From: Escherichia phage ECO95 1-6-1
Direction: 5' to 3' (one strand)
Length of the DNA: 4,570 nt
Sequence record: OR845286.1
Each line of letters starts with the position of its first letter. Position 1 is the first letter of the stretch. Shown here piece by piece: positions 3,048-3,662 of the stretch. The translations under genes were made by a program, and so were the position numbers. The notes beneath the pieces are model-generated. The model was not told the DNA's origin and ran no database searches. It worked only from the letters and a program-made list of their open reading frames with translations.

Positions 3048-3071
3048 GACCAAATTCCATGTGATGCGTAT

Positions 3072-3109
3072 AAAAAAGGCGCTTCCCCATGCCGAGTAGC
3101 GCCTTTTTA
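3072..3109 (-). terminator. Second copy of the fis-type terminator hairpin (copy B), ending 18-24 nt upstream of the yhdJ start
   Basis: Plus strand aaaaaaGGCGCttccccatgccgagtaGCGCCttttta, 37/38 identical to copy A (single t/a difference at the first loop base). Same A-run / GC stem / T-run architecture. Confidence 0.5.
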
Positions 3110-3150
3110 AACAAGCAGTTAGCTAATCGAAATTAGTTCATGCCGTACTG
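3110..3150 (-). repeat. Degenerate duplicate of the fis 3' end (last 4 codons + stop) and 26-nt spacer; non-coding remnant
   Basis: 3136..3147 gttcatgccgta is 12/12 identical to 3369..3380, the fis codons Y-G-M-N. In copy B these codons are followed by TAA (3135..3133) and preceded in frame by a TGA at 3151..3153, so there is no ORF. The 26-nt spacer to the terminator is the same length as in copy A and about 50% identical, sharing a tagct core. Confidence 0.6.
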
Positions 3151-3304
3151 TCAGATTAGCTGTTTTCATGCTTTGAGGTGGTTTTTATATTTTATTTAAA
3201 ATCAATTGGTTATATGAAATTATGACTGTATATTGTTCCAGTGCTTTTTGTTGTTTATGCTATTATGCAAGCAATTCTGTATAAACATTTGTATAAACAA
3301 TAAT
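3151..3304. promoter_or_regulatory. Very AT-rich non-coding segment (about 25% G+C by hand count) between the two terminator copies; candidate regulatory region or small-RNA locus
   Basis: Base composition is far below the flanking genes. Only tiny ORFs (22 aa or less) without Shine-Dalgarno sequences on either strand. Contains direct and inverted short repeats (separate feature). Bounded on the minus strand by terminator A upstream and terminator B downstream. Confidence 0.3.
3278..3299. repeat. Tandem direct repeat tgtataaaca x2 with 12-bp periodicity, plus inverted partner tgtttat at 3252..3258
   Basis: Exact 10-bp repeat at 3278..3287 and 3290..3299, separated by tt. The heptamer tgtttat at 3252..3258 is the reverse complement of the ataaaca core. 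Resembles a direct-repeat operator of the response-regulator type, but I cannot assign it to a known consensus. Confidence 0.4.
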
Positions 3305-3342
3305 AAAAAAGGCGCATCCCCATGCCGAGTAGCGCCTTTTTA
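3305..3342 (-). terminator. Intrinsic, potentially bidirectional terminator downstream of fis (copy A)
   Basis: Plus strand aaaaaaGGCGCatccccatgccgagtaGCGCCttttta: a 5-bp GC stem (GGCGC/GCGCC) flanked by an A-run and a T-run, 26 nt after the fis stop. On the minus strand the hairpin is followed by UUUUUU. The 16-nt loop is long for a canonical terminator. Confidence 0.6.
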
Positions 3343-3365
3343 TTCAATAACATAGCTGAAATGTA

Positions 3366-3662
3366 TCAGTTCATGCCGTATTTTTTTAATTTTTTACGCA
3401 GCGTACCACGGTTGATGCCCATCATCAGCGCAGCACGGGTCTGGTTACCACGGGTGTATTGCATCACCATGTCCAACAGGGGCTGTTCTACTTCAGCCAG
3501 TACCAGCTCATACAGGTCATTAACGTCCTGACCATTCAGTTGAGCAAAATAGTTCTTCAGTGCCTGTTTAACCGAGTCACGCAGGGGTTTTTGGGTTACC
3601 TGATCCTGAGAGTTAACGGTAGAAACGGTCAGTACGTCAGAATTTACGCGTTGTTCGAACAT
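3366..3662 (-). CDS. fis: Nucleoid-associated protein / global regulator Fis, 98 aa
   Basis: ORF translation [98 protein letters not shown] matches the Fis sequence as I remember it, including the C-terminal HTH. ATG at 3662..3660, TGA stop at 3368..3366. Sits 25 bp downstream of the dusB stop, the known dusB-fis operon arrangement. Confidence 0.97.

Follow-up and report, generated by a model that had tools for sequence, protein, structure and literature searches.

A 233-bp insertion at the 3′ end of fis as the probable attachment-site scar of a capsid-forming phage satellite

The stretch of DNA analysed here (the window, 4,570 nucleotides of the sequence record OR845286.1, filed under Escherichia phage ECO95 1-6-1) carries two copies of the end of the regulatory gene fis, and it is the origin of this duplication that concerns us. 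All genes of the window lie on the minus strand. The fis open reading frame (ORF; 3366-3662) is intact, encodes 98 amino acids ending in KKYGMN, closes with a TGA stop and occupies the same place as the annotated Fis in E. coli. Its downstream neighbour is yhdJ, which encodes an adenine DNA methyltransferase (2163-3047, with the start ATG at 3047) and lies outside the duplicated region. The original prediction described the 3′ end, spacer and terminator of fis as duplicated between these genes, and a repeat search of the window recovered this duplication as a direct repeat of 78 nt (copy B, 3070-3147, next to yhdJ, and copy A, 3303-3380, next to fis) with 82% identity and a period of 233. When the copies were aligned, the hairpin blocks (3070-3109 and 3303-3342) were identical at 39 of 40 positions, as counted from the alignment, whereas the spacers agreed at only 12 of 25. 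The 13-nt sequence AGTTCATGCCGTA, which spans the last four fis codons and the last base of the stop codon, was identical in both copies (3135-3147 and 3368-3380), so the similarity is not confined to the hairpin. The longest exact run that the copies have in common is 26 nt, and our own arithmetic gives a chance expectation of about 2e-9 for such a repeat in 4.57 kb. As described before, copy A completes fis with TGA and copy B carries TAA upstream of yhdJ, and the block between them (3148-3302) is 155 bp of AT-rich DNA, with 26.5% G+C against 49.8% for the window. The ORF listing contained no ORF longer than 40 amino acids between yhdJ and fis.

Both copies contain a hairpin on the fis strand, with arms at 3306-3315 and 3332-3341 in copy A and at 3073-3083 and 3098-3108 in copy B. 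The stems, GGCGC(U)/(A)GCGCC, are lengthened by A:U pairs and followed by U6. In 89-nt contexts they folded with −24.4 and −24.8 kcal/mol (z = −3.1 and −2.4), and both have the predicted make-up of an intrinsic terminator. The two terminators proposed between fis and yhdJ are thus structurally present as predicted hairpins, and the A tracts upstream of the stems make both of them potentially bidirectional. A consensus terminator scan reported neither hairpin because its loop limit is 8 nt, and folding was used instead. The comparison of the whole window with Rfam produced only sub-threshold matches, to STnc40 over copy A (3305-3373, minus strand, 23.9 bits against a gathering score of 45) and to SurA across the whole insertion (3054-3343, plus strand, 18.5 bits against a gathering score of 100), which we treated as chance or terminator-like similarity.

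In order to decide which copy is native, we turned to relatives with an empty site. A single fis-proximal copy was present in all 5,426 complete E. coli genomes, which matched the region with the 233-bp period left out, and this single copy resembled copy B, not copy A. Similarly, in ten Salmonella contigs (L002-L011) that encode an identical YhdJ, the 85-bp gap between fis and yhdJ corresponded base for base to copy B, including the TAA. With one copy in E. coli and in the ten Salmonella contigs, the two-copy state is not ancestral. Since these empty sites have only copy B, this copy is evidently the native, ancestral fis tail and copy A was imported with the insertion. The original prediction, which called copy B a non-coding remnant, has to be corrected in this respect, as copy B is the original end of fis and the copy that now completes the gene is the foreign one. 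The spacers point the same way, those of E. coli and Salmonella being far closer to each other than either is to copy A. Accordingly placed on the window, the native stop codon TAA (3133-3135), the 3′ spacer and the native terminator hairpin (3070-3134, minus strand) are now detached from fis; these positions are base-for-base identical to the sole fis-yhdJ intergenic region of the ten Salmonella contigs and close to that of E. coli. They are followed by the displaced native copy of the 13-nt core (core B, the attR core, 3135-3147, minus strand), which again comprises the last four fis codons and the last stop base and is identical to the copy of the empty Salmonella sites. The insertion in the window measures exactly 233 bp, with AGTTCATGCCGTA at its boundaries.

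A sensitive search with window positions 3140-3385 as the query identified the source of the insertion. The whole query was matched in 19 of the 5,426 E. coli genomes, all of which keep an intact attR-int junction, and also in the 16.5-kb vB_KppS-Ant, in Klebsiella phage P12620-1 and in contig L015 from a Salmonella Kentucky phage lysate. Three Klebsiella records filed as plasmids, one of them of about 16 kb, were matched as well, and relatives were carried by 28 IMG/VR contigs of 5-27 kb, all with island sequence upstream of the arm repeat described below. Among genome contigs, the pattern of arm repeat plus hairpin was found only in K. pneumoniae ATCC 13883 and in an Enterobacteriaceae metagenome-assembled genome. 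In ATCC 13883, which we take to be DSM 30104, the host of KpCIDSM30104, an attL of this type adjoins fis, and from this strain synonymy we infer that the fis-adjacent island is KpCIDSM30104. In E. coli ET670 and in Salmonella Kentucky an integrase-bearing island of about 15.7 kb lies between the same two copies. From the yhdJ end, the order in ET670 is yhdJ, the native hairpin, spacer and core, an AT-rich segment, int, DUF6387 and AlpA, then an antirepressor, Icd, a DUF927 primase, capsid, prohead protease, portal, head closure and connector proteins, and lastly HNH, TerS, TerL, a small ORF, a hairpin, spacer and core of the copy A type, and fis. Pfam matches on this island comprised AlpA, DUF927, Phage_capsid (HK97-type), Peptidase_S78, Phage_portal, Phage_connect_1, Terminase_4 and TerL, and its integrase (Int) carries an Arm-DNA-bind_3 domain and the catalytic Phage_integrase domain of tyrosine recombinases. 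No tail or lysis genes are annotated in the RefSeq annotation of the ET670 island. By annotation and Pfam, it has the core gene set by which phage-inducible chromosomal islands of the capsid-forming type (cf-PICIs) are recognised and lacks tail and holin genes (PMC10085698). The window has none of the core genes and retains att arms only, and because it holds no cf-PICI genes it is a relic rather than a member of the class.

Three records of this set deserve mention for the way in which they are filed. LR881103.1 (L013), deposited as Escherichia phage vB_KppS-Ant, is a 16.5-kb induced prophage with the same attP and cf-PICI-like genes, and it has no tail module apart from one ORF annotated as a tape measure. 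NZ_CP069874.1, a non-mobilizable K. pneumoniae plasmid of about 16 kb according to its record, was matched over the whole query and probably has the same attP, while CP018459.1 was matched by the copy A part only. vB_KppS-Ant and these plasmid records look like satellites filed as a phage or as plasmids.

The junctions of the intact islands show how the insertion is built. In ET670, the native E. coli sequence of attR gives way to island sequence at the core, and in attL the island sequence gives way to fis at the core, so that strand exchange can be assigned to the 13-nt core. Window positions 3136-3299 were identical at 164 of 164 positions to ET670 (L012:20067-20230) and to the Salmonella Kentucky contig L015, immediately upstream of int in both. 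At the other end, positions 3277-3380, comprising copy A and the 26 nt upstream, matched the island end of the Salmonella Kentucky contig L014 at 104 of 104 positions and the ET670 attL with 95% identity. Each arm of the intact islands ends in a double TGTATAAACA motif, located 21 nt upstream of the int start codon on the int side, where the island junction reads ...TGTATAAACACTTTGGGCTGG, and 3 nt before the A tract of the copy A hairpin on the fis side. In the Salmonella version of the island both double motifs are one and the same 23-mer, CTGTATAAACATTTGTATAAACA; it is exact in L015, which runs from yhdJ through attR to the start of int, and in L014, which runs from the island end through attL to fis, both being contigs of the Salmonella Kentucky host. 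The window contains this fused repeat, with its two TGTATAAACA units, as a single copy (3277-3299, plus strand), with sequence specific for the int-side arm on its left and sequence specific for the fis-side arm on its right. When L015 and L014 were joined at the 23-mer, they predicted window positions 1297-4570 with 0 gaps and 3 mismatches (3429, 3900 and 3901), all outside the insert. Furthermore, in the circular or attP forms of the island the two double motifs are exactly 233 bp apart, which is the size of the insert, and a gapless alignment of 256 columns was obtained between the circularly permuted insert and three attP sequences, those of vB_KppS-Ant and of two IMG/VR contigs. The 23-nt repeat was invariant among 5 attP sequences, and the TGTATAAACA repeats are probably the integrase arm-binding sites that bound attP.

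The insert can thus be divided along the window. The int-side arm (3148-3276, plus strand) is the AT-rich part, which in intact islands forms the upstream region and leader of int and in the window is an orphan; promoter-like hexamers occur in it at 3163-3191 and 3173-3202 on the plus strand, as consensus matches only. Next to it are the fused repeat, a set of putative arm-type sites of the integrase, and the fis-side arm (3300-3367, minus strand), which consists of the hairpin, the island-type spacer and the TGA and replaces the native stop, 3′ untranslated region (3′UTR) and terminator of fis. Core A, the attL core (3368-3380, minus strand; AGTTCATGCCGTA as written on the plus strand), is the fis-side boundary of the insertion. 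The sequence beyond it (TTTTTT...) is native fis and the sequence before it is of the island type; the last four fis codons fall inside core A, and the TGA and everything 3′ of it are derived from the island.

The core is a direct repeat at a site that is empty in relatives, int stands at the junction in relatives, and the joined arms equal attP, all of which identify an integration scar. Hence, we consider it highly likely that the region is the attL-attR scar of a cf-PICI once integrated at the 3′ end of fis, the past presence of the island in this lineage being what we infer from the arms that it left. The earlier suggestion of an insertion or site-specific recombination footprint, too small for an intact element, that regenerated the end of fis is borne out by the empty sites, by intact islands between the same copies and by an insert composed of the att arms of the island. 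Judging from the junction sequences, the tyrosine integrase of the island would recombine the 13-nt core in the last four fis codons. The island attP would bring its own diverged fis tail (stop codon, spacer and terminator, the present copy A), so that fis would be left intact and properly terminated upon integration, and the native tail (copy B) would be pushed to the far end, next to yhdJ. The junction sequence of the window points to a later loss of the island interior, from int through the gene after terL, of about 15.5 kb. This loss would have proceeded via recombination between the two 23-nt direct repeats, identical in sequence, that mark the outer end of each attP arm, and would have left exactly one attP-length unit of 233 bp, without genes, at attB. 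Recombination between these repeats appears to be the most economical reading of the deletion.

Several points weigh against this reconstruction. The deletion pathway, whether RecA-dependent or operating during island replication, is conjectural, and a repeat of 23 bp is hardly longer than the minimum that homologous recombination requires. The role of the TGTATAAACA repeats as Int arm sites is presumed, and the regulatory effects on fis and yhdJ considered below are predictions. The Salmonella Kentucky contigs are low-coverage fragments flagged UNVERIFIED_ORG. No second scar was found among the 19 E. coli island carriers or among 30 genome and viral loci with the arm-repeat-plus-hairpin pattern, and two scar-specific patterns gave 0 matches in metagenome contigs, the second of them hitting the window as a positive control. 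These searches covered E. coli genomes, genome and viral loci and metagenome contigs, Salmonella population genomes lying outside their DNA-level scope; no Salmonella species representative with this attL or scar was found in a genome collection that holds one genome per species. The junction-spanning ORFs (40, 32 and 32 amino acids) had no counterpart on record. Finally, the window is a single assembly, and its sequence would look no different if the 23-bp repeat had been mis-joined. In that case, the complete island would be present and the assembler would have jumped the repeat, skipping about 15.5 kb into a separate contig. A junction that falls exactly inside a 23-nt repeat found at both island ends is the signature of a small-k de Bruijn mis-join, and the lack of an independent genome with the scar in the collections just named would also be explained. 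However, a genuine deletion mediated by the repeat should leave this signature as well, and nothing else in the window appears chimeric, its flanks being collinear with the ten Salmonella contigs. Moreover, current assemblers work with final k-mers and read lengths that exceed 23 bp, and they normally break contigs at repeats instead of joining them wrongly; because the repeat is shorter than the usual final k-mers, we rate a mis-join as quite improbable.

The chance is smaller still that recombination between the 23-nt repeats took place in the excised, replicating island and produced a 233-bp circle consisting of attP only, which was then integrated at a fis site that was empty. The outcome would be the same sequence, given that the scar equals attP, circularly permuted and without gaps, and that the repeats of the circular forms lie 233 bp from each other across the core, and cf-PICIs do excise and replicate on induction (bioRxiv 10.1101/2025.02.11.637232). 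Yet this route takes more steps than a deletion in place, and it requires integrase in trans in a cell with an empty fis site. A 233-bp circle is also very stiff for the assembly of an arm-bridged intasome. Among the viral contigs no 233-bp circles were found, since all 28 are the 5-27 kb contigs in which island sequence precedes the arm repeat. The two explanations that need no island have next to no probability. The original prediction offered as its alternative that the fis 3′ end and its terminator had been duplicated locally in tandem and that unrelated AT-rich DNA was then inserted, and copies A and B do have the same orientation and the same length. Nevertheless, the spacers have diverged despite near-identical hairpins, and copy A can therefore not have been copied recently from copy B; the native spacers of E. 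coli and Salmonella, by comparison, are close to each other. In addition, both copy A and the AT-rich block match the ends of an integrase-bearing island with 100% identity. The divergence of the spacers and these complete matches led us to reject the tandem duplication. It is just as hard to credit that the terminators evolved independently and converged without a shared history. Terminator hairpins are simple, and the sub-threshold Rfam match would fit a generic terminator-like similarity, but the identity extends over a non-palindromic loop of 14-16 nt, the A and T tracts on the flanks and the coding core of 13 nt, and includes the 26-nt exact run. Convergence was rejected on the extent of this identity, the spacer divergence, the complete matches to the island ends and the comparative data.

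If integration and interior deletion formed the locus, as we favour, several consequences can be predicted for its expression. fis is predicted to be expressed with TGA in place of TAA and with an island-derived 3′UTR, and two intrinsic, possibly bidirectional terminators would stand in tandem between fis and yhdJ. The orphan int promoter region would be directed into hairpin A, and both cores would still be available for re-integration. The distance from the native fis terminator stem to the yhdJ start codon is 25 nt (3048-3072), and likewise in E. coli. These 25 nt leave no room for a yhdJ promoter, so yhdJ transcription probably relies on fis terminator read-through; with the scar, a second predicted terminator stands between the two genes. 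Since the 233-bp unit is equivalent to a full attP, with both arms and two intact cores, we also considered that it might have a function as a gene-less mini-satellite, which could be excised and re-inserted in trans by the Int and AlpA of an incoming or co-resident cf-PICI and capture newly arriving islands in tandem, or that it might be retained as an extra terminator insulating yhdJ from the very strong fis operon. We regard either role as unlikely.

The locus is not a new kind of system; it is the remnant of a known class of phage satellites. In Escherichia, Klebsiella and Salmonella, cf-PICIs occur commonly, and elements that are nearly identical pass between genera (PMC10085698; bioRxiv 10.1101/2025.02.11.637232). 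For KpCIDSM30104 and EcCIGN02175, induction by a helper phage, small capsids made by the satellite itself and hijacked tails have been shown experimentally (bioRxiv 10.1101/2025.02.11.637232). The parent island shares with this group (cfPICI of SatelliteFinder) its gene set and order, its size of about 15.7 kb and the lack of tail and lysis genes, and it is present in almost the same form in Escherichia, Klebsiella and Salmonella. In contrast, the window has just the two att arms and cannot undergo induction, replication or packaging on its own. The spread of cf-PICIs across genera agrees with the 164 of 164 identity of the int-side arm between an E. coli island and the scar in this Salmonella DNA. 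This arm is identical though the chromosomes are only about 87% identical, and the fis-side arm is 95% identical. Arms so similar within such divergent flanks therefore indicate a recent inter-genus spread and mosaicism of the element.

[quoted passage not shown] The parent island resembles them in its position at the fis 3′ end, in its short direct repeats (17 bp in PICMIs, with a 13-nt core in the island) and in having int, alpA and a primase. It differs in that PICMIs are about 6 kb, carry no capsid or terminase genes and reside in Vibrionaceae only, whereas the parent island is about 15.7 kb, carries both and resides in Enterobacteriaceae; integration at the fis 3′ end is thus common to the two, and the minimalist gene content of about 6 kb in a Vibrionaceae host is not found here. 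The original prediction also likened the duplication to those made by att sites at tRNA ends, and this comparison was apt. Islands and prophages that target tRNA and tmRNA genes carry in their attP a copy of the 3′ end of the gene, which restores it, and a displaced partial copy is left at the far junction; the fis island follows the same logic of regeneration. Unlike in those cases, the target is a protein-coding gene for a global regulator, and the island supplies a stop codon, a 3′UTR and an intrinsic terminator, with 78 nt of homology and a crossover confined to the 13-nt core. The attP of lambda-type phages is about 240 bp long, with a core flanked by arms that contain the arm-type sites of the integrase. 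The 233-bp attP unit described here is similar in its length, its AT-rich arm, the direct TGTATAAACA repeats at the arm extremities and the N-terminal arm-binding domain of Int. The difference is that the outermost arm repeats, putative Int sites, are identical 23-mers in direct orientation, so the element would be prone to clean self-deletion.

With these results, an odd duplication at a regulatory gene that ranks among the most highly expressed in enterobacteria is explained as the relic of a mobile element. They also describe the attachment site and the attP anatomy of a cross-genus cf-PICI group, namely a 13-nt core in the last four fis codons and a 233-bp attP bounded by TGTATAAACA double repeats, and show that the island brings its own fis stop codon, 3′UTR and terminator. 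A pair of fis tails with a spacing of 233 bp could serve in annotation as a marker of past satellite carriage. The scar suggests a testable route of island loss, by recombination of the arm repeats with the target gene left intact; if this is true, the identical outer arm repeats of attP would be a built-in, clean self-deletion route for a family of satellites.

Some of the IMG/VR contigs revealed variation at the fis end of the island. In L024 (oriented 7262-8769) and L040:3763-10192, fis does not adjoin the fis-type core at the cf-PICI end; in its place stands an AT-rich arm of another kind, and beyond this arm lie a second tyrosine integrase (with Arm-DNA-bind_3 and Phage_integrase domains), DUF6387 and a primase of the D5/DUF5906 type. 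It seems that another, dissimilar satellite was integrated in tandem at this core, which apparently makes the 3′ end of fis a hotspot shared by satellites. The attL of L023 (oriented about 4956-5085) is chimeric, with a Klebsiella-type loop, GAAGAGCGCC, and a spacer and TAA equal to the native Salmonella copy B, which suggests that exchange or gene conversion occasionally occurs within the 78-nt homology and not just in the 13-nt core. L032 and L035 carry a variant core, GTTCATGCCGTT, behind the hairpin and spacer, and the sequence next to it is not fis but contains an ORF in the opposite orientation; either the junction or the host context may be a different one.

The remainder of the window is chromosomal. 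dusB is cut by the window end, and yhdU (1916-2107) and a gene for an MHYT-GGDEF-EAL protein, which runs off the left end of the window, complete the ORF listing, all on the minus strand. The flanks are 99-99.9% identical to Salmonella enterica contigs encoding an identical YhdJ and about 87% identical to E. coli. The exact YhdJ protein is present on Salmonella contigs with the Pfam domain N6_N4_Mtase, and yhdJ is annotated in E. coli; Fis_N/HTH_8 was matched by Pfam on the Salmonella contigs. At positions 3429 and 3900-3901, the window differs from the empty-site contigs L002, L005 and L008 as well as from the Salmonella Kentucky contigs, and at 3429, which lies inside fis, it has the E. coli base. 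Across window positions 1-1880, Salmonella has the gene for a 699-amino acid MHYT-GGDEF-EAL protein and then a TetR-family gene downstream of yhdU, while in E. coli acrS-acrEF directly follows yhdU, a genus-level difference in gene content that is unrelated to the fis scar.

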